A program made the translations under genes and the position numbers. 64,000 nucleotides of DNA from IMG/VR virus record IMGVR_UViG_3300028833_002293, positions 36,535-100,534 of that record; one strand, given 5' to 3'. The notes under the pieces are model-generated. The model searched no databases and was not told the origin of the DNA. It saw only the letters and a program-made list of their open reading frames with translations. This document shows positions 3,921 to 62,653 of the stretch, piece after piece. The number at the start of each line of letters is the position of its first letter. Within the stretch, counting starts at the first letter, position 1. This DNA is from a virus. Its lineage: Duplodnaviria > Heunggongvirae > Uroviricota > Caudoviricetes.

Positions 3921-3923
3921 ATA

Positions 3924-38687: not shown

Positions 38688-38759
38688 TGCGGAAAATGGG
38701 AGTCGAACCCACTGTTTTTTGCTTATGAGACAAACGTGTAAGCCGTTTCACTCTTCCGC
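38688..38759 (-). tRNA. tRNA-Met/Ile2 (anticodon CAU)
   Basis: reverse complement: GCGGAAG-AG-GTG..CAC-G-TTTGT-CTCATAA-GCAAA..GTGGG-TTCGACT-CCCAT-TTTCCGC-A. Confidence 0.6.
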
Positions 38760-39063
38760 AATGTTAAAAAACCTACGGAGGTACTTTCTGGGAATCTGGC
38801 ATTCTCAACCGCCAAGGCTTTTTTTATCCACGAGGGGCTTGACATTGAGTGCTTCACTACACCATAAGAGTATTACTAAGTGTGTACCCTTGAGCCTAGA
38901 TGCGATTGCTCACATCCTTAGTCGCTGTTAATTCAGTTAACGCTACTCCACGCTTGTACCTCTACTCCTACATCGTAAGTTTATTGTTTAAGGTTTTGGA
39001 AACTGGTAGAGCCACACTACGAAACTCTCTACCTACTCATCGTAGCATTATTCCAAACCTTAG

Positions 39064-39136
39064 TGGAGACGGAGAGACTCGAACTCTCTAATATACCTTG
39101 CAAAAGTATCAGTTTAGCCTGTTAGCCTACGTCCCC
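39064..39136 (-). tRNA. tRNA-Ala (anticodon UGC); D-arm irregular
   Basis: reverse complement: GGGGACG..ATACT-TTTGCAA-GGTAT..GAGAG-TTCGAGT-CTCTC-CGTCTCC-A. Confidence 0.5.
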
Positions 39137-39272
39137 AGTGTAAAAATTGTTAGTTTTTTATACAGAACTAACAAACTGCATAGAGTTCTCAGCTTATTCG
39201 TCTTTGGTGTGCTCACTTTGAACCTCTTTTGTTAGTCAGAAGGAATTGAACCTTCATTACAACCATTTGACC

Positions 39273-39626
39273 TTAAAGAACTTCTACTACTTTTCCGTAG
39301 ATTTGGTTTCTACCTACCCATCCATTCATATGACCATGATTGTTACCAATTAGGTACTCACTATCATTTTTAATGGCATGGATTAAATGCAAATAATGAT
39401 GACCCCTCACCTTACAAAGAACAATGTTTTTTTTCTCAAGCTTAGTGCCATCTTTCACTGGCTCACAAATTACTGCTTGCCTCGATTTCAAGATAGGTGT
39501 CATAGAATTACCAATTCCAATCACCTTGCATGTCTCACCTGCTCTCAGATGGTTGCATGTCTCTTGGTTTTCAAAACCACTATAAGTAAAATCTCTCATA
39601 ATTAAAATTGTTAAGCGGTGGAGCAT
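39273..39626 (-). CDS. hypothetical protein
   Basis: 117 aa ORF embedded in the RNA-rich region. Confidence 0.45.
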   Translation of the reverse strand: MLHRLTILIMRDFTYSGFENQETCNHLRAGETCKVIGIGNSMTPILKSRQAVICEPVKDGTKLEKKNIVLCKVRGHHYLHLIHAIKNDSEYLIGNNHGHMNGWVGRNQIYGKVVEVL

Positions 39627-39744
39627 AGGAGAATCGAACTCCAGAGGTCAAAACAAATACACCTCACGTATGGTCTTCTTATGCACAAAACCGACCAGCA
39701 AGTCACCACCCAACGTGTTTTTATGCCCCATAGATTTTACTTAC

Positions 39745-40000
39745 TTGCAGGGACTGACGGACTCGAACCGCCATCGTTTATTAACAGTTAAAGGCACACT
39801 CTGTTCCGAAGTCGAGACTGCGTTATTCCTTAAATCGCAACAAATTACTCTTACCATTAAGCTAAATCCCTATATAAATACAAAAGACTGAGAATTTTGT
39901 CTTATTGTTGATGCCATTCTACAACGGTTGGACGTTGCTCTTCACACGCTACCTTACGATAGACGTAGACACCATGCACGGACGGTCTTGTGAAGACCAC
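39745..40000 (-). ncRNA. LSU (23S) rRNA-like fragment, domain IV region (equivalent to E. coli ~1880-2070), containing a tRNA-like T-arm and a 22-nt repeat
   Basis: minus strand reads ...CTGCACCGTAAGGTTTAA...TCGTAAGGTAGCG...GAATGGC...CAGTCTCGACTTCGGAACAGAGTGTGCCTTTAACT, colinear with 23S H67-H71 and the GACGGAAAGACCCCGUGAACCUUUACU segment. Confidence 0.4.
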
Positions 40001-40964
40001 CAAGAAACTTACTAGTTTAAACCTTACGGTGCAGCATCATAGCTTTCAGTTCTTCGCCAAGCTCTTGCGGATTCGTAGGATGCCTCCTACTGACTCAGAC
40101 GAGTACTTTTACACGCTCATTGATTTCCTTGCGAGTCCTCAATGTCTCAATATTGCATGAGAATAAGTGCATTTTAGCTGCCTAGTGTCGCACACTTTCG
40201 CTTTGAGTTATATTATCATTTTTGAAATCCTAATTCAAACCTTATTTGTGCAACGATTATGGAAGACGAGGTGCGACTGATAGCATTCGTACCTTTTGAG
40301 CACGACCCACTAAATCGCCTCCCTGTGAAAGCTCACCACAAGCAACTCACTATCACGTACTATCAGCTCCTATGAGTTCTTACGTCTTTCAACGTAAGAC
40401 TAGTACACAACTGAACCCAACACGCCAACTGGTGATTATTGCATCGAGTTCCGCATGGTAATCTTTTGTGTCACCACTCATCCAAAGACGTACCTTGCCC
40501 TTGGAAGCCTACACCAATGGTGTTACCCACAGCGTAGACCGTACCATGCGCTTTTCCGTGAAATGCCTTGAGAGCTTCGGCTCTCCAAACATCCGCAATG
40601 CCTAACCGTAACAAACAGCATCACGTTTATCCCATCACTGGATTATCCTTCCATCTGGCCACGAAAGCTGGCCATTAGCCTATGCCTTTTGCAAGACATT
40701 TCCTCTTGGAATCAGCTTATTCTTTTGGGTATTATTTCCATTTTGGATTATTATAATCAGTAAAGTGCTTCCTCTTACGAGGTGGGTCTCTATCCCAAGC
40801 TCCGATTCTTTACACCATCATAGAATACCTTCCCCAATTCATTTTTTTCTAGTACACGTTCTCTAGAATTATGGCTTCCGAAGTCACCATAGTTATGGAT
40901 TGTTTAACCACATAAAACCCACTTTTACCGTTGTCTACGGCACGAAAAGGCATTTAATGTTGGT

Positions 40965-41100
40965 AAGAGTAGATTTGCACTACTGAAGCCTCCTAAGAGA
41001 CACATCAAGCACGAACTTGATGCCCATTTGTCTACATCACCATCACTGGTGTTCTCCTCTGGTACTTACCAAAAGGTGGTTTTTTACTTTGTCCACCGCA
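40965..41100 (+). repeat. LSU rRNA-like segment (E. coli ~2240-2320 equivalent), copy 1 of a ~135-bp direct repeat
   Basis: plus strand reads CCTCCTAAGAGA..AAGCACGAAC..ACATCA..GGT, compared with CCUCCUAAAGAGUAACGGAGGAGCACGAAGGUUGG...GACAUCAGGAGGUUAG; second copy at 41440..41570. Confidence 0.35.
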
Positions 41101-41439
41101 AAAACTCTTTGCGTTAAGAATTAACGTATTGTTGATGAGGATTTTTCGAGTCAACAAATCATTCTAGACTAACTTGAAGACCTACCCACAGCTTCCTAGA
41201 CATTTTGCGCATTGTTCTAGTAAACACTAGCCTCATCACTACCGTTTTAGCTGCGAGATTCAATATTATTGCAGTATTGCAAAGGCTGATTCATTTTACA
41301 GAACCAATTTAATGGTAAAGGACATCTGCTATATTTCGTACAGTTGTATGTTTGTCGCAACCTCACTTTCCTCGCCAACCTTTACTGCCGATTGCACATG
41401 AACGTTTATACTGCTTAGTTGGTAGAGCTAGATTTGCAC

Positions 41440-41570
41440 TAGCGAAGACTCCGAAGAGCCACATCAAGCACGAACTTGATGCCCATTTGTCTACATCAAC
41501 CTAAAAGGTTGTTCTCCTCTGGTATCTACCAAAAGGTGGTTTTTTAACTTGTCCACCACAAGAATTGTTG
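41440..41570 (+). repeat. LSU rRNA-like segment, copy 2 of the direct repeat
   Basis: ~85% identical to 40965..41100. Confidence 0.35.
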
Positions 41571-41652
41571 CGGGAGTTGGATTCGAACCAACACAATGCG
41601 AGTTCCGTCTCAAGGTTATGAGCCTTGCATGTTACCATTACACTATCCCACA
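41568..41652 (-). tRNA. tRNA with CAU anticodon and an 18-nt variable region (class-II-like body)
   Basis: reverse complement: TGTGGGA-TA-GTGT-AATGGTA-ACAT-G-CAAGG-CTCATAA-CCTTG-(18 nt)-GTTGG-TTCGAAT-CCAAC-TCCCGCA-A; promoter 41757..41795 upstream. Confidence 0.5.
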
Positions 41653-41756
41653 ATATTATGTATCTAAGTCGGAAACTATATTTTTTTCGCGTTTTAGATT
41701 TACAGTCTAATGAAAAGTTAATTAATTGCTGTAAGTTTCCTTTATTAGTTTCAACT

Positions 41757-41795
41757 TTGCAAAGATATGAAAAATATTTTTAATATCCAAAATTT
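41757..41795 (-). promoter_or_regulatory. Bacteroidota-type promoter driving a tRNA transcription unit
   Basis: ttgcaaagatatgaaaaatatttttaatatccaaaat; the 5' leader contains the GGAAACTTACAGCAA motif; tRNA at 41568..41652. Confidence 0.6.
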
Positions 41796-42065
41796 TTAGG
41801 AAGTTTTTTCAATCTTTTTGAAGAATTCATCCAACTTATAAATTTCTGAAAGTATATTGGAGTATTCCTCTACAGAAAGAACAAGTTCTTCCTTACCATT
41901 TTCAATATTGGATGCTTGCAATTTTAGTTTTTCAACCAATGCAACCTTTAATGCTTCACGATACTTAACACTAACAATCTTCTGGGCTTCTTGCTTCTCA
42001 TAGCCAGCTTCACAAAGATTCTTATATAGCTCGTTTCTAAATTCTTTTTCTAAAATCTTACTCAT
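41796..42065 (-). CDS. hypothetical protein
   Basis: 89 aa ORF; promoter 42087..42125. Confidence 0.5.
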   Translation of the reverse strand: MSKILEKEFRNELYKNLCEAGYEKQEAQKIVSVKYREALKVALVEKLKLQASNIENGKEELVLSVEEYSNILSEIYKLDEFFKKIEKTS

Positions 42066-42167
42066 TGTTTATCCTTTCGTTTAACAGTGCAAAGATATAG
42101 AAAATTTTCGAGATTTCCAAATATTGGAAGAACTTTTTTGTTAAAAGATGTTAACTGATTGATTATC

Positions 42168-42255
42168 AGTAACTTAGTGGAGCTAGAGGGAGTCGAACCC
42201 TCGTGCAAACAACCATTCCATAAGAAATTATACAAGCTTCCCCAAAGTGTTCGAA
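42168..42255 (-). ncRNA. tRNA-like element (canonical T-arm GAGGG-TTCGACT-CCCTC; acceptor pairing unclear)
   Basis: T-arm and adjacent 3' strand present; the 5' strand could not be paired cleanly. Confidence 0.25.
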
Positions 42256-42571
42256 AACACCGCCTTTGAGACCACCTCATTTTGTGAAAACGAGGAAAAC
42301 TAGGGGGGATGACTGGGAGTCACCGATTCCACCATTCAGTTTTGAGAAAACCGAAAAAACAAAATGCTAGGTTGTTCTGTTCCTAAGAGCCTAGCCTCTC
42401 GGCTCACTTACGCTGCAATAGCGTACTCGTAAGCAGGAGAATTAACATTCTCGCCAGTTATAGTTTTTGCTATTTTGGGTGTATGCCCACCGCTTGTTTC
42501 TTACCAAACGCATTGCTGTCAAATCCATTATAGCCCCATACGTTTCAAATGCTCAAAGAACTCTTTTAATG

Positions 42572-42645
42572 TGGTGATGGAGTGACTCGAACACCCAACC
42601 TATTGAATATCAGTCAATTGCGCTGACCAGTTGCGCCACATCACC
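42572..42645 (-). tRNA. tRNA-Ile (anticodon GAU)
   Basis: reverse complement: GGTGATG-TG-GCGC-AACTGGTCA-GCGC-A-ATTGA-CTGATAT-TCAAT-AGGTT-GGGTG-TTCGAGT-CACTC-CATCACC-A; clean cloverleaf. Confidence 0.7.
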
Positions 42646-42679
42646 ATTTTATTTATAAATATTGTTTCATGTTAAAAAG

Positions 42680-42750
42680 TACGGAAACGTTTTAATACAT
42701 TAAGTTGCTCTAGCCAACTGAGCTACAAGGAGCATAAAACTCCTCGATGG
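42680..42750 (-). ncRNA. split / permuted tRNA-like pair: T-arm plus acceptor 3' strand lies immediately upstream of an acceptor 5' strand plus D-arm
   Basis: minus strand: GGGTTCGAATCCCAT-CGAGGAG-TTTTAT-GCTCCTTG-TAGCTCAGTTGGCTAGAGCA; the two acceptor strands can pair (with two G-U). Confidence 0.3.
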
Positions 42751-43083
42751 GATTCGAACCCATGACCTACTACTTACAAGGCTTATTAAAAAACTATTGC
42801 TGTCTGTTTCCTTAGCGCTTGAGGTCGGATTTGCACCTTCTGTCTCTGTCTCCATCTTTCGATTTTGTACCAGCGTTTATACTACTTAACACTTCTCAAG
42901 CATGTTTCGCCTACTGTACTCATGTGATAACTTGAAAATGTATCACAACAAGCCATCGCAGACTTGTCTTGCATTAACGTAGTTAAGACCAATATACGGC
43001 ATTCTTGACCTAAAGTATGCTTACGAACACGTTATATATATACTGTTTATCATGCCATAAAACCTCTAACGTGTAAAAGGTTA

Positions 43084-43206
43084 TTTTTCTGCGTATCTGA
43101 ATATCATTCCACAATGATGGCATATAAATACCTCACCATTTTCATCAATAGCATTTGAAATGTCAATTTTTACATCACCACCACATTTTACGCATTTAAC
43201 TTCCAT
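43084..43206 (-). CDS. small zinc-ribbon protein (below ORF-track cutoff; coordinates approximate)
   Basis: minus reading MEVKCVKCGGDVKIDISNAIDENGEVFICHHCGMIF..., two CxxC pairs; promoter 43229..43268 upstream. Confidence 0.3.
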
Positions 43207-43228
43207 ATCGTTATTTTTTTTTTTACTC

Positions 43229-43268
43229 TGCAAAGATATGAAAAAAAATTGGAATATCCAAATTCTTT
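43229..43268 (-). promoter_or_regulatory. Bacteroidota-type promoter
   Basis: ctgcaaagatatgaaaaaaaattggaatatccaaat; exactly 20 nt between the TTTG and the TAtcTTTG on the minus strand. Confidence 0.6.
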
Positions 43269-43288
43269 AACACTCTTTAAGAAAAAAG

Positions 43289-43359
43289 TAGGGTATGACG
43301 GAATCGAACCGCCCTTCTTAGGATGTAAGCCTAATGTCCTTCCGATGAACGAATACCCT
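43289..43359 (-). tRNA. tRNA-Val (anticodon UAC)
   Basis: reverse complement: AGGGTAT-TC-GTTC..GGAC-A-TTAGG-CTTACAT-CCTAA..GGCGG-TTCGATT-CCGTC-ATACCCT-A. Confidence 0.6.
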
Positions 43360-43691
43360 AGTTTGGCACGAACATTTTGCCATATACACATATAGAATCT
43401 TTATGTTAAGCGAAACAACCGTAGTTGAAAAGGGGCTTGCACCCTTATCCTTCCCAGATGCTATACAGGAATGCTTTATTTTCTACCTTGAGTATTGCTA
43501 GACAAACTCAGTGCCTTTTCTTGTATCAGTTATGGTCTATTACAGACCTACCTTGCCCTTATACTTGTAAGCAAACCAACCGATAACTCCACCCAAAATG
43601 AATTCAATCATAGTTGTAATATTTTTAAAAGATTAGACAATTAATTTGATGTTGCAAAGATATAAAAAATATTTTTAATTTCCAAATAAAA

Positions 43692-44357
43692 TTACCATCT
43701 TTCTAACTTTTTAACAATCTCTTCTTTTTCCATTTGAGCATTGAACTTGTCTTGTATCAATTCAGCTTGAATCTCATTCTCAAGTTCATCGTAATCATCT
43801 TCGTTGTATTGCTCATGTAAGCCATACTTTTTCTTACGAGGTCTTTTACATGTTGGCTCGTCACACTTTATAGCGTTTTTGCCATCACCCCAGCGGAACT
43901 GTAGCCAACCCTCGTATTCTCCGTAATCGAATACATAGCCTTTTGGAATTTCATCGTCACCCCTAAAGTATTCATCAAGCATTCTCAATGATACCTCTTG
44001 TGACCTCCAAGGATAATTCATATTGGAGTGACCATATACTCCGTCATGCCCAATTTTAATGATTCTACTTCTCTCAAAGTCTAAAACCATGTATCCCCAG
44101 AACCTATCTTGGACATCAAATATCCATTCTTTAGTGTGCCACTTATCTCTTGGAATTTCTTCTTGGTGTGGTCTTGGAGTATCAGCGTAAACCTCTTCAA
44201 TCAGTTTAACCTCTTCCTTCCACTCTTCCTCAGTGTCAAACTCAGTCTCAGTATGGATATACTCATGTAGGTTATACAAGCCAGTCATTTTTTTATCTGA
44301 CAATGATTTACCCCACATTGAGAATATGACCATATATCGTTTTGTATGCTTCTTCAT
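43692..44357 (-). CDS. hypothetical protein
   Basis: 221 aa ORF. Confidence 0.55.
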   Translation of the reverse strand: MKKHTKRYMVIFSMWGKSLSDKKMTGLYNLHEYIHTETEFDTEEEWKEEVKLIEEVYADTPRPHQEEIPRDKWHTKEWIFDVQDRFWGYMVLDFERSRIIKIGHDGVYGHSNMNYPWRSQEVSLRMLDEYFRGDDEIPKGYVFDYGEYEGWLQFRWGDGKNAIKCDEPTCKRPRKKKYGLHEQYNEDDYDELENEIQAELIQDKFNAQMEKEEIVKKLERW

Positions 44358-44971: not shown

Positions 44972-45186
44972 TAGTCAACAAAACTTTCAAAATAATTTTT
45001 TACAACCTTAAACGGCCAAAAAAATACCAATCCAGCTATAAACAAAACTGCCATTGGTTCTTCGCTGCCTTCGTTTAGCTCTTTCACTAATTCATATTCT
45101 AGCTTGTATTCATCGTACCACCATATGAATGTCAGTATAATACCAACAAAGAAATATCCTATTACAATAAAATAACAAATGTCCAT
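44971..45186 (-). CDS. small membrane protein
   Basis: 71 aa hydrophobic ORF. Confidence 0.4.
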   Translation of the reverse strand: MDICYFIVIGYFFVGIILTFIWWYDEYKLEYELVKELNEGSEEPMAVLFIAGLVFFWPFKVVKNYFESFVD

Positions 45187-45283
45187 AACAATAAAGTAGG
45201 CTTCCTCTACCTATCACGTCACCTAAAGTTTTCTCTGCAAGCAGTCGCAAGTGGTGTTTTCCTTTAACTCGATGAGGATTATC

Positions 45284-45355
45284 GCAGGCACAGCAGGAAT
45301 CGGACCCACATCTGAGGTTTTGGAGACCCCCATTCTAACCATTAAACTATGCGCC
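45284..45355 (-). tRNA. tRNA-Trp (anticodon CCA)
   Basis: reverse complement: AGGCGCA..GGGGT-CTCCAAA-ACCTC..GTGGG-TCCGATT-CCTGC-TGTGCCT-G. Confidence 0.55.
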
Positions 45356-46088
45356 TATTTATGTATTCTAGCAAATATTTTTTAGATGTTGGCAAATTAT
45401 AGTGTTCACACCACCTTCTTATACCATTATCTGAAACATTATATTTTTTTCCAACTTTTACGAAACTCTTTAATTCTTTGAAATCGTTGATAAGTGTTTC
45501 TTTTGATGGGTGCGTGTTTTCAAATCTTTTTTCAGCAAAATCACTAATAGAGGCTATAGAGCTTTTATTATCGCATTTTTTTACTTTCTCTTTTTTAACT
45601 TTCTCTTTTTTTACATATTTTGTGCTATTTTCCCTATTAGCATTTTTACCAGCATATGTATCAGTTAGTGAATGACAATTAGGGCATAATAACTGGATAT
45701 TCTCTAATCTATTATCATTATGTACCCCATTAACATGGTGTATCTGTAATGGTATAGGAACTCCTTCCCATTCAGTCCTTTTACAGCCTTCACATCTATA
45801 CTTTTTTATCCCTTCTTCTATTAATCTCTTCTTTAACTTTGTTGCGTCTTTGTATGTACTATCCTTCACTAGAATGTCTTTTGTTTCAATCCTAGGATGA
45901 TAGCTACACATTGTTTTTCTTTTGTAAGTGAATTTTAATTCAACTCCTAGTTCTTGCGCTAGTTGTTTAATCTCTTTGTAGTCTTCTCCACCTACGTTTT
46001 CAATTCCCATTTTATGACAAAGGTCTAACATATTAACACATTTGTCAGCATTTTCAATAAGTTTGTCAATTGCGTATTCCCGTTTCAT
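45342..46088 (-). CDS. HNH homing endonuclease
   Basis: 248 aa; HNH motif IHHVNGVHNDNRLENIQLLCPNCH. Confidence 0.6.
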   Translation of the reverse strand: MKREYAIDKLIENADKCVNMLDLCHKMGIENVGGEDYKEIKQLAQELGVELKFTYKRKTMCSYHPRIETKDILVKDSTYKDATKLKKRLIEEGIKKYRCEGCKRTEWEGVPIPLQIHHVNGVHNDNRLENIQLLCPNCHSLTDTYAGKNANRENSTKYVKKEKVKKEKVKKCDNKSSIASISDFAEKRFENTHPSKETLINDFKELKSFVKVGKKYNVSDNGIRRWCEHYNLPTSKKYLLEYINRRIV

Positions 46089-46234
46089 ATCTATATTCTT
46101 TTAATATAAATATCACGTAAATTGCAAAAATCGAACTTATTTGGAAATTTATTTTTGGTTCAACTTTCTTTAAAAAACCTAGCCGCTACTGTCTGTAAAC
46201 AGTATTTCTTTTCCCTTATTTATTTACTGACATA

Positions 46235-46945: not shown

Positions 46946-47045
46946 TGGTCAAGAACTTCACCAATCTCCGAAAGTTCCTCTTTCGTGAGTTCAATGATGT
47001 CGTATTTATCGTTTAACGTATCGTGAGCAATAGACATAATTACGT

Positions 47046-48032: not shown

Positions 48033-48113
48033 ATGATAAGAATTTTATAGTTATGTGTTAACAGTTAACTACCGTTTTTCCAATTTCATATTTCATAACA
48101 TTCTTTTTTTTTG

Positions 48114-48199
48114 TACACCGTATTGGAATCGAACCAATGTCACTGAACAAAACAGTACAGATTAAAAGTCTGTTGCATAATCCACTCTGCCAACAGTGC
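48114..48199 (-). tRNA. tRNA with UUU anticodon (Lys-type) and an 18-nt variable region
   Basis: reverse complement: GCACTGT..ACAGA-CTTTTAA-TCTGT-(18 nt)-ATTGG-TTCGATT-CCAAT-ACGGTGT-A. Confidence 0.45.
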
Positions 48200-48209
48200 A
48201 TATGAGTTG

Positions 48210-48300
48210 TGCTTCCACAGGGAGTCGAACCTTGCTTTTCGGTTTAAAAGACCGAAGTAATCCGTCTGTCTCCAGGCACTTACCGATATACGATGGAAGC
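48210..48300 (-). tRNA. tRNA with UUU anticodon carrying a ~17-nt insertion in the D region
   Basis: reverse complement: GCTTCCA...TTCGGT-CTTTTAA-ACCGAA..CAAGG-TTCGACT-CCCTG-TGGAAGC-A. Confidence 0.4.
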
Positions 48301-48306
48301 GTATCG

Positions 48307-48380
48307 TGCGCCTAGAGGGATTCGAACCCTCGACCCCATGATTAAAAGTCATGTGCATCTACCAACTGAGCTATAGGCGC
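48307..48380 (-). tRNA. tRNA-Lys (anticodon UUU), copy 1 of a tandem duplicate
   Basis: reverse complement: GCGCCTA-TA-GCTCAGTTGGTAGA..CATGA-CTTTTAA-TCATG-GGGTC-GAGGG-TTCGAAT-CCCTC-TAGGCGC-A. Confidence 0.65.
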
Positions 48381-48399
48381 ATTGCTTATTAAAAATTTG

Positions 48400-48473
48400 T
48401 GCGCCCAGAGGGATTCGAACCCTCGACCCCATGATTAAAAGTCATGTGCATCTACCAACTGAGCTATGAGCGC
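48400..48473 (-). tRNA. tRNA-Lys (anticodon UUU), copy 2 of a tandem duplicate
   Basis: near-identical to 48307..48380; acceptor changed to GCGCTCA/TGGGCGC. Confidence 0.65.
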
Positions 48474-48495
48474 ATAAAACCAAAGTACTCCTAAA

Positions 48496-48567
48496 GGGAT
48501 TCGAACCCTTAACCCTCGGCTTAAGAGGCCGCAGCTCTACCGTTAAGCTATAGGAGCATTTCTATAT
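48496..48567 (-). tRNA. tRNA-Lys (anticodon CUU)
   Basis: reverse complement: GCTCCTA-TA-GCTT-AACGGTA-GAGC..CGGC-CTCTTAA-GCCG..AAGGG-TTCGAAT-CCCTT-TAGGAGT-A. Confidence 0.55.
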
Positions 48568-49878: not shown

Positions 49879-49887
49879 TACCCTCCT

Positions 49888-49954
49888 TTTACAAGTGGCG
49901 ATAGAGGAGTATGATTCCCCAACCTCTTGAATATGAGTCAAGTGCTCTGCCAAT
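49888..49954 (-). tRNA. tRNA-Met/Ile2-type (anticodon CAU) with non-canonical T-loop ATCATAC
   Basis: reverse complement: GGTGATA-TA-GCTC-AATTGGCA-GAGC-A-CTTGA-CTCATAT-TCAAG..GGGGA-ATCATAC-TCCTC-TATCGCC-A. Confidence 0.5.
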
Positions 49955-50095
49955 TGAGCTATATCACCATCTATTAAAATACCTACATTCCACTATCTCG
50001 TACAACTGTAATGCTTGCCTTGATTGTGTGATACAAATACATTCGTTGCCTACGATTACTTCTCTAGGTGGTTGTTCCTAGCGTTTCCTTCAGTA

Positions 50096-50856: not shown

Positions 50857-51273
50857 TCATTGATTAATACTACTCAATATATGTTCTTTCCAGTAATTAC
50901 GTCTTGTACTATTTTTGTTTTTAGATTTAAAAGTGTCTAGTTGACTATCACAGTTAGGGCATATCATCCTTAAATTTTCTCTTTTGTTGTTTGACGCATC
51001 ACCATCAATATGGTCTAATACGAACACTAACGGTTTACCATTATGTTCTGGTTTACATCCGCATATTGCGCACATATTATTTTGTTCTTTCATAAATTCA
51101 TCTTTAAAATTTTTTGGGGTATAATTTCCTTTACAATATTTCTCATTGTGCTCCAAAAAATCTTTGTAAGATTCTTTATGCCTATATTCAGCAGAACATT
51201 GAAATGAACAATAAACTTTGTTTTCTCTTGTTGTTTCGAATTCTTTATTACAATTTATACATTTTTTAATCAT
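50857..51273 (-). CDS. HNH homing endonuclease (paralog of 55348..55962)
   Basis: 138 aa; the segment FVLDHIDGDASNNKRENLRMICPNCDSQLDTFKSKN is almost identical to the C-terminal half of 55348..55962. Confidence 0.6.
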   Translation of the reverse strand: MIKKCINCNKEFETTRENKVYCSFQCSAEYRHKESYKDFLEHNEKYCKGNYTPKNFKDEFMKEQNNMCAICGCKPEHNGKPLVFVLDHIDGDASNNKRENLRMICPNCDSQLDTFKSKNKNSTRRNYWKEHILSSINQ

Positions 51274-51274
51274 G

Positions 51275-51365
51275 CGGAGGTAGAGGGATTCGAACCCCCA
51301 TGCCGACTCATCACCGACCTACTTGTTTTCAAGACAAGCCTCTTCACCAGTTTGAGTATACCTCC
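51275..51365 (-). tRNA. tRNA-Ser (anticodon UGA), class II
   Basis: reverse complement: GGAGGTA-TA-CTC..GAG-G-CTTGT-CTTGAAA-ACAAG-long variable arm-GGGGG-TTCGAAT-CCCTC-TACCTCC-G. Confidence 0.6.
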
Positions 51366-59479: not shown

Positions 59480-59562
59480 GCTCTAACCCTACTGAGCTAC
59501 CGCCACATATAGATAATAAATGGTGTGGCGGACAGGATTCGAACCTGTGACCCCTAGCATAG
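59480..59562 (-). ncRNA. permuted or split tRNA arrangement: 3' half (T-arm plus CCGCCAC-ACCA) lies 14 nt upstream of its complementary 5' half (GTGGCGG plus D-arm)
   Basis: minus strand: ...ACAGG-TTCGAAT-CCTGT-CCGCCAC-ACCA-TTTATTATCTATAT-GTGGCGG-TA-GCTC-AGTAGGGTTA-GAGC-AC...; acceptor strands are perfectly complementary and a CCA is encoded. Confidence 0.35.
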
Positions 59563-59605
59563 CGTGCTTTTTAAACGATGTACTTTGCTGTACGTTTCCA
59601 CCTTG

Positions 59606-59676
59606 AGAGGGTAAAGGGAATCGAACCCTTGTATGAAGATTGGAAGTCTCCCGCACTACCACTGTGCTATACCCTC
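59606..59676 (-). tRNA. tRNA-Gly (anticodon UCC)
   Basis: reverse complement: GAGGGTA-TA-GCAC-AGTGGTA-GTGC-G-GGAGA-CTTCCAA-TCTTC-ATAC-AAGGG-TTCGATT-CCCTT-TACCCTC. Confidence 0.6.
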
Positions 59677-59919
59677 AATGATGAACTAACTTCGTGATAC
59701 CATTTACACTACAAGTATGAAAAGAACGCAATCCTCGGCAAAAAGTACGAGAAACAATGGTATCTGGTTTGGTATTAGTCCGTGAGCTGTTTACCTTTCG
59801 CAGCAACCGTTTACCTAATCATTTTAGAAAATTAAGGAGAATGTAGACAAAACTTATGATTGGTAAACTTGCGGTTTTATTTAACGTAAACCACCGCCAA
59901 CGCATATTTCTCCCAAATT

Positions 59920-60933
59920 TTACTGAAGTACCTTAACTATTGCTAGACGATTGAGCTGCACGCCAATACCTTTCCAACTATTGACTCTTACACCACGTTT
60001 TGTCAAGTAATTAGCTACCACTTCTGCACGACTTTCAGAAATCATCTGATTAAATTCAGGCGTACCTTCTGGAGAAGCAGTACCAATAACGTCTACAATA
60101 ATGTCTTGTCCGATTGAATTCAATATTGTTTTAGCATTGTCAGATAAATCTGCCTTACCTTGTTCAAACTCTACAGTCCAATCATTTTTATTAATAGTTA
60201 CTTCAGTTTTTTTTTCCACTGTAGGTTTTCTATCCATACATTCCTTAAGGTCTGACTTAAGTTGGTCTATCCTTCCTCTTTGATATTCAATTTCAGAATT
60301 CATTAGTCCAATGTCATATGTCTTAAAGTGATGTGTGCCATTACTGTTTTTAAAATGGTAAACATAAGTTGCCATTAAACTGACAAGTGCATTATGGTTA
60401 TTAAACTGAATGCGGCCATCATCATTCCTAAGAAGCCAATAAATTGCTGGAGTAATTACCAATGAATGAATCTTCTTCTTGCCAAAATTGAATGCTAGGT
60501 CTGAACCTGTTTTAAGTGAAATATTATTCCTTCCACCATCAAAGGCACTATGCCATCCTAATCCACCGACTGTGGACACTTCGAAAGACCTAGGTCTGCC
60601 AATATAACCTCCAATAATGTTCGAAATGTTAAGCACACCATTCACACCAATATTGGCATTCTTGAACGCAGTTCTAGCATTTCCCACATGATTATCACTG
60701 AGAGATGTTAAAAACTCAAGCTGAGTGCCAAATACTGGAGTAATTCCCTTGCTAAACGCAAAACCAAAAGTGGTGTTCATTGGGAATACATTGTCAAAAT
60801 CAAGAGGTGTGGTCACACCAAATGTTCCACTAACGCTAAGATTATCAAGCGCATTGCTATTTTCAGTAGCAATCTGTGCATTTGCACTTACAATGGCACT
60901 AAACAGTGCCAACATCAAAAAAATTTTCTTCAT
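59920..60933 (-). CDS. OmpA-family outer-membrane protein (signal peptide, beta-barrel, C-terminal OmpA peptidoglycan-binding domain)
   Basis: 337 aa; N-terminal signal MKKIFLMLALFSAIVSANA; C-terminal segment (TASPEGTPEFNQMISESRAEVVANYLTKRGV) matches the OmpA_C signature. Confidence 0.55.
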   Translation of the reverse strand: MKKIFLMLALFSAIVSANAQIATENSNALDNLSVSGTFGVTTPLDFDNVFPMNTTFGFAFSKGITPVFGTQLEFLTSLSDNHVGNARTAFKNANIGVNGVLNISNIIGGYIGRPRSFEVSTVGGLGWHSAFDGGRNNISLKTGSDLAFNFGKKKIHSLVITPAIYWLLRNDDGRIQFNNHNALVSLMATYVYHFKNSNGTHHFKTYDIGLMNSEIEYQRGRIDQLKSDLKECMDRKPTVEKKTEVTINKNDWTVEFEQGKADLSDNAKTILNSIGQDIIVDVIGTASPEGTPEFNQMISESRAEVVANYLTKRGVRVNSWKGIGVQLNRLAIVKVLQ

Positions 60934-61103
60934 AACTTTTATTTAATATTATTTAGAATTAATTAGTCATAAAAAATAAGGGAACTATGTTTTGATAGAA
61001 TCGAACTACCTATTTTTTATTTCACAGATAAAAAAATTAACCAAATAAAACTTGCTGTAAGTTCCCGCATATATACTATTTCTTGCAGATTGTATATTCT
61101 AAT

Positions 61104-61418
61104 TTAGAACGGCAAATCATCTACACTTGGAAGTTTTTTGAATTTCCATTTATATATATAAGTTTTTACACCATCTTTCTTCACCATATGAAAAGTCGGT
61201 ATTCTCACGTCATAACCCTTTCTCTCGAATGTTCTCACAACTAGTTCAAATGCCTCATAGCAATATGGATGCTGTGAAGTTTCAATCTCTAAATCGAGTT
61301 CATCGCCAGGGTCTTTAATATCGTATTCATCTAGACTTTCAATAATCTCCTTTATGAAGAAATGACAGTATCTAGGAAAATCGACATCTTCTTTTGTTAT
61401 CTTCTTATATTCACCCAT
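61104..61418 (-). CDS. hypothetical protein
   Basis: 104 aa ORF. Confidence 0.45.
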   Translation of the reverse strand: MGEYKKITKEDVDFPRYCHFFIKEIIESLDEYDIKDPGDELDLEIETSQHPYCYEAFELVVRTFERKGYDVRIPTFHMVKKDGVKTYIYKWKFKKLPSVDDLPF

Positions 61419-61843
61419 AACATTGCCTTTAAAAAACGGATACTTTTGTTTAATAGACCAATACCTACGAATAGGTGCTTAAACCATTTTATTAGGTTTA
61501 GCTTGGATTCGAACCAAGAAATTGTAACAAAGTCACATTGCTGTTAGTATCCTTGAGTTAACTATATCAACTATCACGTTTGGACTGCTACTAGAGACCT
61601 TACCCCCATCCATACCTCTCTAGGAAGATAACCTAGCACATTCTTTCAATTTCCATGACCCCACAGTTTATTGGACTTACGTGGCACGATTATTTGATAT
61701 ATAGTTGATGGTGTGGGATTCGAACCCACGTTGCCGATAGGCTGCGTTCCTACAGAAATTATTCACCTATCCATAGGATTCACTACTCTCTAGTTTCTTT
61801 TAGTACCGCCTTGCGCAATCCAGCTTACTGAACCATCAATTTG

Positions 61844-61916
61844 TCGAGAATGTTGGATTTGAACCACTCCCCATCACCCCAGATGACGTATGCTACCCGT
61901 TTACACTACATTCTCG
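61844..61916 (-). tRNA. tRNA, anticodon uncertain (possibly GGG, Pro-type); canonical acceptor stem and T-arm
   Basis: reverse complement: CGAGAAT...GTGG-TTCAAAT-CCAAC-ATTCTCG-A. Confidence 0.4.
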
Positions 61917-61929
61917 ATTTTCGGAAACA

Positions 61930-62000
61930 TTTTTTATTTTTTACATTGCTCTACCAACTGAGCTACAACGAGCTATTGCCCATTGAAGAGACTCGAACTC
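61930..62000 (-). ncRNA. third instance of a T-arm/acceptor-3' segment immediately upstream of a tRNA 5' half (GCTCGTT plus D-arm)
   Basis: minus strand: AAGAG-TTCGAGT-CTCTT-CAATGGG-C-AATA-GCTCGTT-GTA-GCTC-AGTTGGTA-GAGC-AATG. Confidence 0.25.
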
Positions 62001-62214
62001 TTGACCTACGGATTACAAATCATAATAAAAACGTTTGCATTGCTGTATGTTTCCTTTTATGTTTTATGAGACTGTTTTGGCTCTATGCTTTCTGTTCTAT
62101 CACGTTCCAATACGTAATCCCTAAGAAGGGTTAGGCTTAACGAATTATTCTTTTACATTTCATTCGCCCTCTTGCTACTATAGCAAGACTGTGATTACTC
62201 ACCGTTCAGTCTCA

Positions 62215-62285
62215 TTGAGCAAGCCTATGGAATTGAACCATTCTCGCCCTCGGTTGAGGACAGTGCTACCGTTACACCAAAGCCG
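62215..62285 (-). ncRNA. mini tRNA-like element (acceptor-like end, D-arm, one hairpin, TTCAATT T-loop; no anticodon arm)
   Basis: reverse complement: GCGGCTT-TG-GTGT-AACGG..GTCCTC-AACC-GAGGGC..ATGG-TTCAATT-CCAT. Confidence 0.25.
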
Positions 62286-62299
62286 CATTTCATTTCTGT

Positions 62300-62338
62300 T
62301 TTGCAAAGATATATAAAATATTTCTTATTTCCAAATTT
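62300..62338 (-). promoter_or_regulatory. Bacteroidota-type promoter in the tRNA array
   Basis: ttgcaaagatatataaaatatttcttatttccaaat. Confidence 0.55.
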
Positions 62339-62479
62339 TTTAGAATTTTTTTTATTAAAATCCCATTTCTTCTTTTTGGGCGAAGTGTTGGTAATGCTCC
62401 AACGTCTTGAGTGCCACAAACTCACATTCTGCTTTTGAACTAACTACGCCATATTAAAAAAATCGGAATCTATTTTTTT

Positions 62480-62551
62480 TCGGAATTGTTGGATTCGAAC
62501 CAACGTCTCAAAATTATCAGTTTTGCATCTTAACCACTTGATTAAATTTCG
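62480..62551 (-). tRNA. tRNA-Ile (anticodon GAU), second copy; one A-C mismatch in acceptor
   Basis: reverse complement: CGAAATT-TA-ATC..GAT-G-CAAAA-CTGATAA-TTTTG-AGAC-GTTGG-TTCGAAT-CCAAC-AATTCCG-A. Confidence 0.5.
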
Positions 62552-62581
62552 TAAATTATCTTGCTGTTAGATTCCTTGTAG

Positions 62582-62653
62582 TTGCTAGGGTAGGACTCTG
62601 ACCTACAATCTCTTGGTAAAATCCAAGGCTTTGTGTAATTAAGCTACCTAGCA
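62582..62653 (-). tRNA. tRNA-Lys-like (UUU) with irregular anticodon-loop length and non-canonical T-loop
   Basis: reverse complement: TGCTAGG-TA-GCTT-AATTACACA-AAGC-C-CTTGG-ATTTTA(C)-CCAAG..GTAGG-TCAGAGT-CCTAC-CCTAGCA-A. Confidence 0.4.

Follow-up and report, generated by a model that had tools for sequence, protein, structure and literature searches.

In the window (the whole 64,000-nt stretch of DNA that was analysed), the interval 38688-62653 represents the RNA island of a very large, uncultivated phage. The overall explanation that we favour, with moderate confidence, is an island combining the phage's own tRNA supply with conserved mimic RNAs, GOLLD punctuation and group-I-like introns. 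An earlier note, made from the letters alone, had read the interval as a phage tRNA gene array that buffers against the anticodon nuclease PrrC and whose odd units are all deviant tRNAs. The array stands, the PrrC buffering has no direct support, and the reading of all odd units as deviant tRNAs is not supported. Most of the "aberrant tRNAs" appear purpose-built rather than decayed and are mostly separate, conserved RNA classes; only a few of the odd units resemble decayed tRNAs and look like true pseudogenes.

tRNA genes, their predicted expression and codon demand

The Rfam tRNA model RF00005 matched 29 units in the interval, all on the minus strand (28 at or above the gathering score, plus 62582-62653 at 40.4 bits), and ARAGORN recovered 25 of them at default settings, in agreement with the array of ~30 minus-strand tRNAs first proposed (Table 1). 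About 27 of the 29 are decoding-competent, and the whole window holds 33 matches when an intron-split tRNA-Tyr is included. Strict T-arm hairpins, defined as a 5-bp stem with a TTCRANN loop, numbered 40 on the minus strand (35 within the interval) and 7 on the plus strand, against ~3.8 in shuffled sequence used as the chance control. The array exceeds the interval at both ends, with tRNAs at 31303, 33246 and 36322 and tRNA-Tyr at 62743-63367, and is co-oriented with the tmRNA, GOLLD RNA, HNH endonuclease genes and small ORFs; the extension, the tmRNA and the GOLLD RNA had been overlooked. The phage assignment is borne out by the CCA-adding enzyme, RNA ligase, HNH endonucleases and further genes of phage type encoded in the window, and by close relatives, viral contigs from IMG/VR that measure as much as 413 kb. 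The host probably belongs to the Bacteroidota, and the complete genome is likely several hundred kb, of which 64 kb is seen here; any partner proteins (Ro60, SmpB, synthetases, uL1) may be encoded in the remainder.

The earlier inventory of isoacceptors required revision. Lys(UUU), counted five or six times, is represented by three genes, or four with the Lys-like unit at 62581-62653; no Ser(GCU) gene turned up, and the reading of one probably stems from the long-arm Asn(GUU) at 51684, which is Ser-like; Pro(UGG) at 61843 and His(GUG) at 62378 had been omitted, and Asn(GUU) occurs twice. The structural oddities it listed are real: the T-loops ATCATAC, TGCAATT, ATCGTGC and TCAGAGT and the 12-19-nt variable regions (18, 18, 19 and 12 nt in Met, Lys, Asn and Asp) are all present in the ARAGORN structures. 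The 110-nt unit at 52000-52109 exists as well; in relatives it is conserved at 87 nt, a 30-nt insertion having been gained here. The Lys-like unit at 62581-62653 had no blastn match in relatives, and the unit at 39616-39729 likewise showed no conservation. tRNA-Met at 49895 and Gly-GCC at 59150 are paralogs with 74% identity (direct repeat D12).

Judged by sequence, the long-arm tRNAs are one phage-specific scaffold with swapped anticodons (Asn GUU, Lys UUU and amber CUA). Its members are mutual closest relatives (64-69%) and have the D-arm UGGnnGAGUGGnUUAA in common, and the scaffold reappears in diverged relatives with the same and other anticodons, Trp CCA among them. The CUA-bearing member would, by its anticodon, be an amber suppressor.

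The promoters ascribed to individual units found support in a search for the Bacteroidota-type pattern TTTG-N17-21-TAnnTTTG, which returned 27 sites against 3.45 expected, 26 of them on the minus strand and 10 within the interval. Host RNA polymerase might produce multi-gene precursor transcripts, from which RNase P and RNase Z would excise the tRNAs. None of the tRNA genes encodes CCA in the ARAGORN structures, and the genes for the CCA-adding enzyme and the RNA ligase are located upstream; the phage CCA-adding enzyme might then supply the CCA. Such a tRNA set could serve as the phage's own supply for a Lys/Ile/Asn-rich, AT-biased proteome and could confer partial independence from the loss of host tRNAs. 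No amino acid is used more often in the window ORFs than Lys (9.6%; AAA 770 versus AAG 503), and AUA makes up 2.1% of their codons, a usage consistent with the codon-demand argument when phage codons alone are counted. Buffering against PrrC gained no direct support: the Lys tRNAs have anticodon loops of the canonical form CUUUUAA, the window shows no anticodon nuclease, and the literature offers the idea a general precedent only (PMC10264068, PMC11464382).

Table 1. RNA features and HNH genes of the island, in order of position; all lie on the minus strand.
Feature	Position	Basis or remark
tRNA-Met(CAU)	38686..38760	RF00005 47.5 bits; ARAGORN relaxed threshold
tRNA-Ala(UGC)	39063..39136	RF00005 51 bits; ARAGORN
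tRNA-like unit directly 3' of GOLLD	39747..39871	RF00005 39.4 bits with 60-nt insert
GOLLD RNA	39885..40674	3' domain 39885-40323; 5' domain to ~40674
Cloverleaf-like unit, copy A	40959..41072	direct repeat D10/D14
Cloverleaf-like unit, copy B	41418..41532	direct repeat D10/D14
tRNA-Met(CAU), 18-nt variable region	41567..41652	RF00005 61.3 bits
Bracketed tRNA-Tyr anticodon-arm mimic	41671..41740	cargo hairpin UUAGA-CUGUAAA-UCUAA
tmRNA	42175..42537	RF00023 76.9 bits, gathering score 47
tRNA-Ile(GAU)	42571..42645	RF00005 69.8 bits
Bracketed Y-RNA-like unit 1	42683..42811	RF02553 37.5 bits, below gathering score 69
tRNA-Val(UAC)	43288..43359	RF00005 52.5 bits
tRNA-Trp(CCA)	45284..45356	RF00005 55 bits
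HNH endonuclease gene abutting tRNA-Trp	45342..46088	PF01844 E=2.2e-5
Lys cluster	48113..48557	RF00005 55.7-67.6 bits; ARAGORN structures
Long-arm Lys(UUU), 18-nt variable region	48113-48199	Lys cluster
Weak tRNA-like unit	48209-48300	Lys cluster; 99% conserved in relative L003
Lys(UUU)	48306-48380	Lys cluster
Lys(UUU)	48399-48473	Lys cluster
Lys(CUU)	48485-48557	Lys cluster
tRNA-Met(CAU), T-loop AUCAUAC	49895..49968	RF00005 60.4 bits
HNH_3 endonuclease gene	50857..51273	PF13392 E=3.2e-5
Dense tRNA block	51274..52551	RF00005 46.6-78.1 bits; ARAGORN structures
Ser(UGA)	51274-51365	dense block
Ala(UGC)	51467-51542	dense block
Long-arm Asn(GUU), 19-nt variable region	51684-51772	dense block
Asn(GUU)	51779-51853	dense block
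Non-canonical acceptor/T-arm unit	52000-52109	dense block
Asp(GUC), 12-nt variable region	52130-52210	dense block
Thr(UGU)	52220-52293	dense block
Phe(GAA)	52477-52551	dense block
tRNA-Arg(ACG)	54214..54289	RF00005 54.5 bits
Bracketed 23S rRNA L1-stalk mimic unit	54298..54517	mimic at 54337-54416
Decayed intron-containing tRNA-Arg(UCU) pseudogene	54728..55330	intact 3' exon; intron-like body 54773-55289
HNH_3 endonuclease gene	55348..55962	PF13392 E=3.6e-5
tRNA-Arg(UCU), T-loop UGCAAUU	56033..56107	RF00005 61.3 bits
tRNA-Leu(UAG)	58309..58388	RF00005 58.1 bits
Bracketed Y-RNA-like unit 4	58584..58733	direct sequence reading
tRNA-Met(CAU)	58739..58813	RF00005 67.6 bits
tRNA-like unit, expanded anticodon/variable region	59029..59142	ARAGORN intron mode; fold; 96% conserved in L001
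tRNA-Gly(GCC), T-loop AUCGUGC	59150..59223	RF00005 61.8 bits
Bracketed Y-RNA-like unit 2	59454..59599	RF02553 35.3 bits
tRNA-Gly(UCC)	59605..59676	RF00005 71.3 bits
Bracketed D-armless His(GUG)-like unit	60980..61066	bracket GGGAAC/GUUCCC; RF00005 only 20.6 bits
Bracketed T-arm and closed acceptor unit	61438..61552	bracket GGAUAC/GUAUCC; lacks D-arm consensus
Acceptor stem and T-arm around ~95-nt non-tRNA body	61700..61839	fold; 92% conserved in L002
tRNA-Pro(UGG), weak	61843..61916	RF00005 33.5 bits
Bracketed Y-RNA-like unit 3	61923..62054	RF02553 33.3 bits
tRNA-His(GUG), T-loop AGCAUUA	62378..62449	RF00005 42 bits
Bracketed tRNA-Ile(GAU) 62480-62551	62465..62575	GGAAUC/GAUUCC and U-run; RF00005 65.4 bits
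Lys-like unit, 6-nt anticodon loop, T-loop UCAGAGU	62581..62653	RF00005 40.4 bits
tRNA-Tyr(GUA), intron-split	62743..63367	ARAGORN intron mode; outside 38688-62653

Bracketed small RNAs

Ten small RNAs are enclosed by a bracket, GGAAAC-NN-ACAGCAA ... GUUUCC, usually followed by a U-run; ten copies were observed against 0.5 expected. The bracket forms a covarying 6-bp terminal helix adjoining the invariant ACAGCAA, and its five helix variants are all compensatory, each with one perfect partner at most 260 nt away. Pattern matches with full cargo occurred in 12 of 15 viral cases (contigs of 240-413 kb) versus 0 of 41 bacterial ones. Among the cargoes, Y-RNA-like unit 1 consists of a T-arm, a closed 7-bp acceptor stem and a D-arm, and unit 4 has a T-arm, the closed acceptor CCUCUUG/CAAGAGG and a class-II-like D-arm. 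The alignment of this Y-like family has 11 covarying pairs out of 24, a count that, like the other covariation data here, derives from 3-10 mutually related sequences and for which the counting tool's own controls warn of inflated apparent support. The Tyr-arm mimic lies directly downstream of a promoter (41791-41760), and its loop is identical in L007, on a covarying stem, and reads CUGCUAA in L006. The L1-stalk mimic matches RF02541 positions 2131-2210 (53 bits versus a gathering score of 50; E=2.2e-15), and its best blastn match to annotated E. coli 23S genes is 83% over 71 nt; helix 78 shows compensatory changes in L007, and the mimic was found on three further IMG/VR contigs.

The bracketed cargoes include copies of translation-apparatus parts, namely anticodon-less permuted tRNA bodies, the tRNA-Tyr anticodon arm alone and the 23S L1 stalk. 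They might be decoys or sponges that engage the proteins binding to the copied parts, with the bracket helix possibly acting both as terminator and as stabilising end-clamp.

Introns, homing endonucleases and decayed copies

In tRNA-Tyr(GUA), exon 1 (63367-63330) and exon 2 (62791-62743) are separated by a 538-nt insert (63329-62792), and the spliced product is a canonical tRNA of 87 nt. An intron-less allele at L001 5244-5330 indicates presence/absence alleles. The insert is bounded by U at -1 and G at its 3' end, guide and exon covary (UGU/GCA, UCU/GGA, CAU/GUG), and its core folds into a P2-P9 topology with 95.8% pairing versus 35-50% with slid partners. The catalytic-core helices are uninformative because they are invariant among the five insert copies, and the Rfam group I model gave no match to the insert, searches of 551 and 801 nt included. 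The alleles, boundaries, guide and fold suggest a mobile, group-I-like insert that is predicted to be self-splicing.

The tRNA-Arg(UCU) pseudogene retains an intact 3' exon and an intron-like body (54773-55289), and its 5' exon is missing the D-arm as well as the anticodon 5' strand. The two HNH_3 genes are paralogs (direct repeat D5). A family of anticodon-loop introns together with homing endonucleases is probably the source of the few real pseudogenes.

tmRNA, GOLLD RNA and known phage RNA islands

The tmRNA tag, GENVNSPAYEYAIAA, is kept at the peptide level in five relatives (L003-L007), and ARAGORN made no tmRNA call at 42175-42537 in default or relaxed runs. The GOLLD RNA, a cage RNA, covers the entire RF02032 model (1-416 of 416; 85 bits, E=7.7e-21, below the gathering score of 150), with 25 compensatory pairs of 112 among six sequences, to be read with the same caution; its 5' domain is 77% conserved in L005-L007 (z=-4.8). 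The unit directly 3' of it keeps an acceptor stem, D-arm and T-arm and carries a ~55-nt branched insert in place of the anticodon arm. It is conserved in L003-L007 with covarying acceptor and T stems, and the apparent anticodon varies among these relatives. Copy A of the cloverleaf-like units has an 8-bp closing stem, four hairpins and the loop UGCAAAU; a 10-copy alignment of these units contains 19 covarying pairs out of 37, again subject to the inflation noted above. Such GOLLD-flanking tRNA-like units might serve as RNase P/Z punctuation, cutting GOLLD free of a transcript led by tRNA-Met.

The literature searched held no match for the long-arm scaffold, the bracket family or the L1-stalk mimic. 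A tRNA array with tmRNA in a huge phage is an already known kind of arrangement, and GOLLD is typically found in phage tRNA islands (PMC12286853). The GOLLD RNA described here sits downstream of tRNA-Met, like the published GOLLD env-38 (PMC12286853).

The tRNA array and the genes around it

The large minus-strand tRNA array that the earlier note had described at 38688-62653 (the interval) was confirmed by ARAGORN, by the Rfam tRNA model RF00005 and by an independent count of T-arm hairpins. ARAGORN called 28 tRNAs in the whole window, all 28 on the minus strand and 25 within the interval. Rfam gave 28 RF00005 matches at or above the gathering score in the interval, and a permissive search added a 29th at 62582-62653 (40.4 bits); the 29 range from 33.5 to 78.1 bits, the gathering score being 29 bits, and two of them (39748-39871 and 62582-62653) have no usable 7-nt anticodon loop. 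T-arm hairpins numbered 40 on the minus strand (35 in the interval) and seven on the plus strand, compared with about 3.8 in shuffled sequence. Strict hairpins of this type also occur outside the called tRNAs at 5749, 33456, 39255 and 46140 on the minus strand; RF00005 scores 27.6 bits at 33432-33508, and the intron mode of ARAGORN makes a call at 5724-5809. An ARAGORN run at an 80% threshold with introns gave 139 calls, largely noise, and was set aside. The array reaches past both ends of the interval, to 31303 and 63367. The definition of Tran et al. (2016, PMC4758250) asks of a tRNA array unit at least 20 tRNA genes and a density of at least 2/kb; the 29 in the interval suffice in number and fall short in density, at 1.2/kb over 23,966 bp with protein genes and other RNAs interspersed. 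Dozens of tRNAs are common in huge phages (Al-Shayeb et al. 2020, PMC7162821), and the array is confirmed as one of this known kind.

Several structural details of the earlier reading reappeared in the ARAGORN folds, among them the T-loops ATCATAC, TGCAATT, ATCGTGC and TCAGAGT and the 12-19-nt variable regions of the Asp, Met and Lys tRNAs, which are found in Asn tRNAs as well. The tRNA-like unit at 52000-52109 is real and non-canonical. The list of isoacceptors survived in part: on the minus strand there are three Lys(UUU) genes instead of five or six, no Ser(GCU) and two Asn(GUU), and Pro(UGG) and His(GUG) had been left out. The proposed buffering against the nuclease PrrC has no direct support in the window. 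The odd units, which had been taken for aberrant tRNAs, are mostly conserved, structured, non-decoding RNAs of several classes. That the array meets a codon demand is plausible; Lys accounts for 9.6% of codons and AUA for 2.1%. No tRNA gene encodes CCA in the ARAGORN structures, which fits the CCA-adding enzyme of the phage.

ORFs of at least 100 aa cover 38% of the interval versus 80% of the first 30 kb. We rejected an alternative code, because reading TAG or TGA as sense lifts the coverage of the interval merely to 44-45%; the large gaps are thus non-coding and the region is RNA-rich under the standard code. The pattern TTTG-N17-21-TAnnTTTG is the Bacteroidota promoter consensus. It was found 27 times in comparison with 3.45 expected, 26 times on the minus strand, and the 10 sites within the interval agree with the earlier claim that units have their own promoters. 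Single-sequence folding z-scores did not separate RNAs from ORFs (an ORF control had z=-3.85) and were kept solely as a detail of one domain of the GOLLD RNA. Two gaps were rejected as RNAs: 53385-53720, which resembled a conserved RNA, proved to be a 42-aa ORF plus a terminator, and 58814-59028 is coding. Both small ORFs are conserved on the minus strand, one at 53507-53635 (42 aa) with in-frame indels among relatives and the terminator behind it, the other at 58804-59007 (67 aa) with strongly 3-periodic substitutions (p=1e-5).

Two other minus-strand elements were noticed in the array. A conserved non-coding element of about 325 nt at ~57885-58215 is GC-richer (47%), has no 3-periodicity and no Rfam match, and its long closing helix covaries in comparison with the related IMG/VR viral contigs L001 and L002, from AAGUAGUUAGG/CCUAACUAUUU to AGAUAACUGAA/UUCAGUUAUUU; it is possibly a structured RNA, or the long leader of a 340-aa ORF. 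A mini unit of about 62 nt at ~59385-59447 has an acceptor-like stem UCGGGAG/ACUCCCGA and a T-arm GCGG-UUCGACU-CCGU, with a short hairpin replacing the D- and anticodon arms; the enclosing gap is 98% conserved in L001 and L002.

The RNA ligase and the CCA-adding enzyme are encoded in the same area as a NAD-salvage-like gene set (see the table), which possibly has an anti-defence role. The 256-aa ORF at 52614-53384 (minus strand), between tRNA-Phe and a small ORF, has weak matches to DUF723, a treble-clef zinc finger and CapR homology, and may be a further nuclease-like or mobile gene of the array.

Features located in the window and variants of the bracket helix
Feature	Position	Details
NAD-salvage-like set: NAPRTase, isochorismatase-like (nicotinamidase-like), CinA, NUDIX, NADAR, HIT	520-7489, 22209-22823, 34223-35094	minus strand
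RNA ligase	4577-5488	
CCA-adding enzyme	7998-9392	
BspA-type LRR proteins, ankyrin proteins		in window
HNH endonucleases		three, all inside the array
Long-arm tRNAs	Asn(GUU) 51684; Lys(UUU) 48113; amber suppressor 36322	3-bp D-stem, GAGUGG-type D-loop, long variable arm
tmRNA	42175-42537	RF00023, 76.9 bits vs gathering score 47, model 1-374; overlooked by the earlier note
Promoter	41791-41760	no later consensus match until the ORF at 39626
Cloverleaf-like units, ~115 nt	41532-41418, 41072-40959	
tRNA-like unit, 125 nt	39871-39747	downstream of GOLLD
Bracketed permuted tRNA bodies	42811-42683, 58733-58584, 59599-59454, 62054-61923	
Bracketed tRNA-Ile(GAU)	62575-62465	genuine tRNA
Bracketed D-armless His-like unit	61066-60980	
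Bracketed T-arm/closed-acceptor variant	61552-61438	
Bracketed short unit	38627-38563	just outside the interval
Bracketed hairpin	41740-41671	identical to the tRNA-Tyr anticodon arm
Bracketed ~220-nt unit	54517-54298	with L1-stalk mimic
Bracket helix variants		GGAAAC/GUUUCC; GGAAGC/GCUUCC; GGAUAC/GUAUCC; GGAAUC/GAUUCC; GGGAAC/GUUCCC

The bracketed RNAs and their cargoes

The motif GGAWAC-NN-ACAGCA has 10 minus-strand copies between 38614 and 62575, compared with 0.5 expected in the whole window. In every copy the first six bases find a single perfect reverse complement within 260 nt, followed in seven of the ten by a U-run. The two strands form a terminal helix, the bracket, around a small RNA, which we call the cargo. 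Searching for a 20-base bracket-plus-cargo pattern, we found 15 viral stretches; 12 of them, on contigs of 240-413 kb, contain the cargo in full. The 41 pattern matches in bacterial genomes are close to chance (about 34, estimated), and none has the cargo. Within the limits of an exact-pattern search, the module is therefore confined to a single phage clade.

The permuted tRNA bodies (Y-like units) are built of a T-arm, a loop-closed 7-8-bp acceptor stem and a D-arm on a long A/U stem without an anticodon loop. The CUGUAAA loop of the tRNA-Tyr anticodon-arm hairpin is also found in L007, on a covarying stem. The core of the L1-stalk mimic, 54337-54416, corresponds to positions 2131-2210 of the bacterial LSU rRNA model RF02541, helices 76-78, at 53 bits (gathering score 50; E=2.2e-15), and the copy in L001 reaches 63 bits. 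Its best match among annotated E. coli 23S genes is 83% over 71 nt (blastn). The mimic was found on three further IMG/VR contigs, two of them about 410 kb long. Such a near-perfect copy might point to a specific partner: uL1, the tRNA elbow or a stalk-targeting enzyme.

We tentatively propose that this clade of ~400-kb phages might use a modular cassette for displaying copies of the translation machinery as protein decoys or sponges, next to a re-anticodoned long-arm tRNA scaffold whose charging perhaps does not follow the anticodon. The cassette would consist of the covarying terminal helix, the invariant ACAGCAA and usually the U-run, and it would express a free-standing anticodon-less tRNA body, a lone anticodon arm and a ribosomal L1 stalk. 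The decoys would be aimed at proteins of the host (or the phage) whose role is binding, modification or cleavage of the copied parts. We infer the decoy or sponge role from what the cargoes imitate. The bracket family, with 10 copies here and at least 12 related contigs, could offer a sequence-defined handle on non-decoding tRNA-like RNAs in infection.

The closed-acceptor units could also be permuted tRNA genes, in which the 3' half precedes the 5' half. Their transcripts would be cut by RNase Z and RNase P in the closing loop and tailed at the new 3' end by the phage CCA-adding enzyme to give a two-piece, possibly aminoacylatable, tRNA-like molecule, with the long A/U stem and the bracket keeping the pieces together. 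The closing loops start with N73-C-A/U-A (ACAA, ACUA, ACCA), resembling the 3' trailers of the genuine tRNAs of the phage, and the window has genes for both a CCA-adding enzyme and an RNA ligase. However, a product having no anticodon loop would be unable to decode, and we found no phage precedent for permuted tRNA genes in the literature. We consider this origin doubtful.

It is unlikely that most of the odd units are functionless, decaying pseudogenes or fragments left in a fast-evolving array by tandem duplication, homing endonucleases and intron mobility. Decay does occur in the array: the tRNA-Arg(UCU) copy at 54728-55330, with a perfect 3' exon and a lost D-arm, is a pseudogene, a T-arm remnant lies at 55316-55348, and 62581-62653 and 39616-39729 have no homolog in the relatives. 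The three HNH genes and a family of mobile inserts also fit this reading. Most odd units, on the other hand, are kept in diverged relatives with their pairing held by compensatory changes. Covarying pairs amount to 19/37 in the cloverleaf units, 11/24 over eight aligned copies of the Y-like units (T and acceptor stems included) and 12/25 in the unit adjacent to GOLLD; the L1 mimic has compensatory changes in helix 78. The bracket helix itself covaries in five variants, and the module recurs on 12 large viral contigs.

Three of the four Y-like units match the model of YrlA (RF02553) over its full length with 33.3-37.5 bits (E=7e-5 to 1e-3), and the YrlA module order of T-arm, acceptor-like stem-loop and D-arm on a long stem is present in all eight aligned copies. 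YrlA-like RNAs are known in phages, and YrlA of M. smegmatis, which is cut by RNase P and CCA-tailed, has a similar acceptor stem (PMC4201824). Genuine YrlA would bind Ro60 (Rsr) and tether it to an exoribonuclease for the decay of structured RNA. The matches, however, fall well short of the gathering score (69) and are due solely to the tRNA-like module. The motif GNCGAAN0-1G, which binds Ro60 and defines YrlA (Chen et al. 2014, PMC4201824), was seen by eye in none of the eight aligned copies, and no TROVE (Ro60) domain was matched in the ~50 ORFs scanned in the 64-kb window. Instead, the units carry the invariant GGAAAC..ACAGCAA / GUUUCC element, which they share with units of unrelated, non-tRNA cargo. 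The Y-like units are therefore YrlA-like in architecture only; we rejected their membership on score and Ro60 motif and regard a genuine YrlA function as very unlikely.

GOLLD, tmRNA and unusual tRNA genes

The tRNA-Met and the cloverleaf units behind the promoter at 41791-41760 lead to GOLLD, a phage RNA of unknown function that assembles into a 14-mer cage (Kretsch et al. 2025, PMC12286853). Like the tmRNA, it had been overlooked by the earlier note. The full order is the bracketed hairpin unit, tRNA-Met, the two cloverleaf units, GOLLD and the 125-nt tRNA-like unit. The sequence at 39885-40323 matches the GOLLD model RF02032 over its whole length (1-416) with 85 bits (E=7.7e-21), below the gathering score of 150, and thus represents a divergent GOLLD subgroup. 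In this 3' domain, 25 of the 112 predicted pairs are compensatory among six sequences including five homologs, and the helices coincide with the structure line of the model. Conservation extends ~350 nt further upstream, to ~40674, giving a total of ~790 nt; the 5' domain folds with z=-4.8, by the single-sequence method that did not distinguish RNAs from ORFs.

An 8-bp stem closes each cloverleaf unit, and the loop of its terminal hairpin, UGCAAAU, is similar to the variant T-loop of tRNA-Arg(UCU); two copies are present in each of four relatives. The downstream unit retains an acceptor stem, a D-arm and a T-arm, with covariation in the acceptor and T stems; a branched insert takes the place of the anticodon arm, and the apparent anticodon is not conserved. 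These tRNA-like elements beside GOLLD might serve as RNase P/Z punctuation that frees it, and their arrangement in a single promoter-to-ORF unit suggests how the cage RNA could leave its precursor. Between the cloverleaf units and GOLLD there are two further conserved, ORF-free minus-strand stretches, 40675-40950, common to L003 alone (96%), and 41110-41410, common to L003 and L006 (93%).

The tmRNA has an acceptor stem of 5' GGGGCUA with 3' UAGCUCC, giving G3.U70. Its tag, GENVNSPAYEYAIAA, is followed by a stop codon, ends in the hydrophobic ...AA tail expected of such a frame, and is kept at the peptide level in five relatives. Pfam identified no SmpB among the ~50 ORFs scanned in the 64-kb window. 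A Bacteroidota host is suggested by both the promoter consensus and the style of the tag. A separate 114-nt RNA at 39616-39729 on the minus strand combines an 8-bp acceptor stem (with G3.U70) and a T-arm with a non-tRNA body of 80 nt; it has ACC encoded and matches the tmRNA model weakly (17 bits).

The long-arm tRNAs are mutually closest (64-69% identity), the canonical Asn and Lys genes and the phage tRNA-Ser genes being more distant. Relatives carry the same long-arm Asn version with covarying arm stems, and also Trp, Thr, Val, Arg and CUA versions. Judged by sequence, these tRNAs are one scaffold with swapped anticodons. Their discriminators fit the amino acid of the anticodon, G73 for Asn and A73 for Lys. 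A73 is an identity element for LeuRS. Because SerRS recognises the long arm and G73 regardless of the anticodon (reviewed in PMC7609411), mischarging of the long-arm tRNAs is conceivable. Allo-tRNAs are class-II-like tRNAs with non-Ser anticodons and 8/4 or 9/3 acceptor/T helices (Mukai et al. 2017, reviewed in PMC7609411). The long-arm tRNAs resemble them in joining a long variable arm to class-I amino acid anticodons and in the G73 of the Asn version, but their discriminators match their own anticodon's amino acid and their helices are 7/5 in ARAGORN; with 7/5 helices they are therefore not allo-tRNAs. Asn, Lys, Trp and amber anticodons on a feature read by SerRS, together with A73, could let the rules of tRNA identity be tested in a natural setting and might open a way to phage-driven recoding. 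It is highly improbable that the array is codon compensation alone, with its structural oddities due to neutral drift in a redundant set: Lys, Ile and Asn are among the most-used amino acids and have duplicated tRNAs, and dozens of tRNAs are common in huge phages (PMC7162821), but this would explain neither the conserved non-decoding RNAs (L1 mimic, anticodon-arm hairpin, anticodon-less bodies, cloverleaf units) nor the single long-arm scaffold with several anticodons across diverged relatives.

The amber-suppressor tRNA(CUA) at 36322-36413 (minus strand, 92 nt, discriminator A), on the long-arm scaffold, has orthologs in L003, L004 and L007. TAG stops end only 2 of the 60 ORFs of at least 100 aa, and TAG recoding does not lengthen the window ORFs. 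The minus-strand genes for tRNA-Met(CAU), 49895-49968, and tRNA-Gly(GCC), 59150-59223, are 74% identical paralogs with an odd T-arm in common (AUCAUAC / AUCGUGC), so that a switch of anticodon on one scaffold is seen here a second time. Among the odd units there is an excess of GUN-type anticodon loops (Tyr, His, Asn, Asp), all on the minus strand (41671-41740, 60980-61066, 39747-39871, 51684-51772, 52130-52210, 62378-62449 and 62743-63367). The oddities comprise the Tyr intron, the Tyr anticodon-arm hairpin, the D-armless His-like unit, an odd His T-loop, the long-arm Asn, a CUGUUAA unit and an Asp with a 12-nt variable region. Linking this bias to queuosine enzymes or anticodon-specific nucleases would be pure conjecture.

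An element of ~540 nt, present in two copies in the window, splits tRNA genes. At 62743-63367 the flanks of the insert form tRNA-Tyr(GUA), the exons, when joined, give a canonical 87-nt tRNA, and the gene is uninterrupted in L001. In relatives, inserts also split tRNA-Arg(UCU) and tRNA-Met(CAU). These inserts are probably group I introns, according to a hand-assigned fold in which the invariant core blocks pair in group I order (P3-P4-P5-P6-P7-P3'-P8-P7'-P9). They share with known anticodon-loop group I introns the insertion after U (the 5' exon ends in U in the Tyr, Arg and Met genes), the terminal G and a short guide pairing with the last exon bases via a U.G wobble; the predicted P3-P9 order, with a P3/P8 pseudoknot and a GNRA-capped P9, would be a further likeness. 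The guide, 3 nt long and preceded by a conserved AAUU, covaries with the exon (Tyr UGU/GCA, Arg UCU/GGA, Met CAU/GUG). In a curated core alignment of five copies, 95.8% of cells pair versus 35-50% with slid partners, the fold being derived from the same sequences; P2 and P6 have double changes, and P3, P4, P7 and P8 are invariant. The core strings GUGUAGAGA and GGUAAAGA presumably also resemble those of the known introns. The inserts differ in being longer, at 461-623 nt, in residing in phage tRNAs (Tyr, Arg, Met) with presence or absence among close phages, and in the silence of the Rfam group I model RF00028, which had no match at E<=10 on two insert copies (searches of 801 and 551 nt). We found no report of group I-like introns in phage tRNA genes in the literature. 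The split tRNA-Tyr and its intron-less allele could be a clean system for intron mobility in such genes. Another copy, in a tRNA-Trp-like gene at 8126-8684 of L002, does not follow the U(-1)/guide rule and has no splice junction giving a 7-nt anticodon loop; this insertion may be defective or ectopic.

Comparison with known phage RNAs and the ribosomal L1 stalk

Among 50,697 annotated phage records, DNA similarity found by megablast and blastn was tRNA-sized at most. Relatives were found among IMG/VR viral contigs, several of ~410 kb, and the window proteins recur in JGI and ENA metagenome assemblies. With such large relatives and no closer match among annotated phages, the virus is an uncultivated, very large phage. 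Co-oriented tRNA genes by the dozen are likewise known from huge phages (PMC7162821) and the Lak megaphages of Prevotella (PMC6784885), together with a phage tmRNA, enzymes for the repair and maturation of tRNAs and a suppressor tRNA. Lak phages also have a gut-type Bacteroidota host, as the promoter consensus suggests here, and one window tRNA matches Lak phage records at 89.5% over ~55 nt. The headline is thus ordinary, since tRNA arrays, tmRNAs and GOLLD of huge phages are already on record. What differs is the density of conserved non-decoding tRNA-like RNAs, which is not described for those phages (PMC7162821, PMC6784885). Out of the ordinary are the bracket family, the long-arm scaffold and GOLLD in a single promoter-to-ORF unit; the literature searched had no record of the bracket family, of a phage L1-stalk mimic or of the long-arm scaffold.

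Published GOLLD RNAs are neighbours of tRNA islands; the one whose structure was solved lies downstream of tRNA-Met, and GOLLD linkers sometimes contain tRNAs (PMC12286853). The RNA described here is alike in its size of ~800 nt, in its conserved 3' and variable 5' domains and in its site downstream of tRNA-Met, flanked by tRNA and tRNA-like genes, and the linker tRNAs have a counterpart in L003 at 12319-12390 (RF00005, 48 bits). It differs in the two cloverleaf units upstream and the insert-bearing tRNA-like unit downstream, which are unmentioned in PMC12286853.

The L1-binding site in the L11-operon mRNA mimics the L1 stalk of 23S rRNA. That site is a minimal mimic, whereas the phage copy reproduces all three helices. 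Over 80 nt, it agrees with the 23S rRNA stalk at almost every conserved consensus position; unlike the ribosomal stalk, it is free-standing, phage-encoded and placed inside a bracket module.
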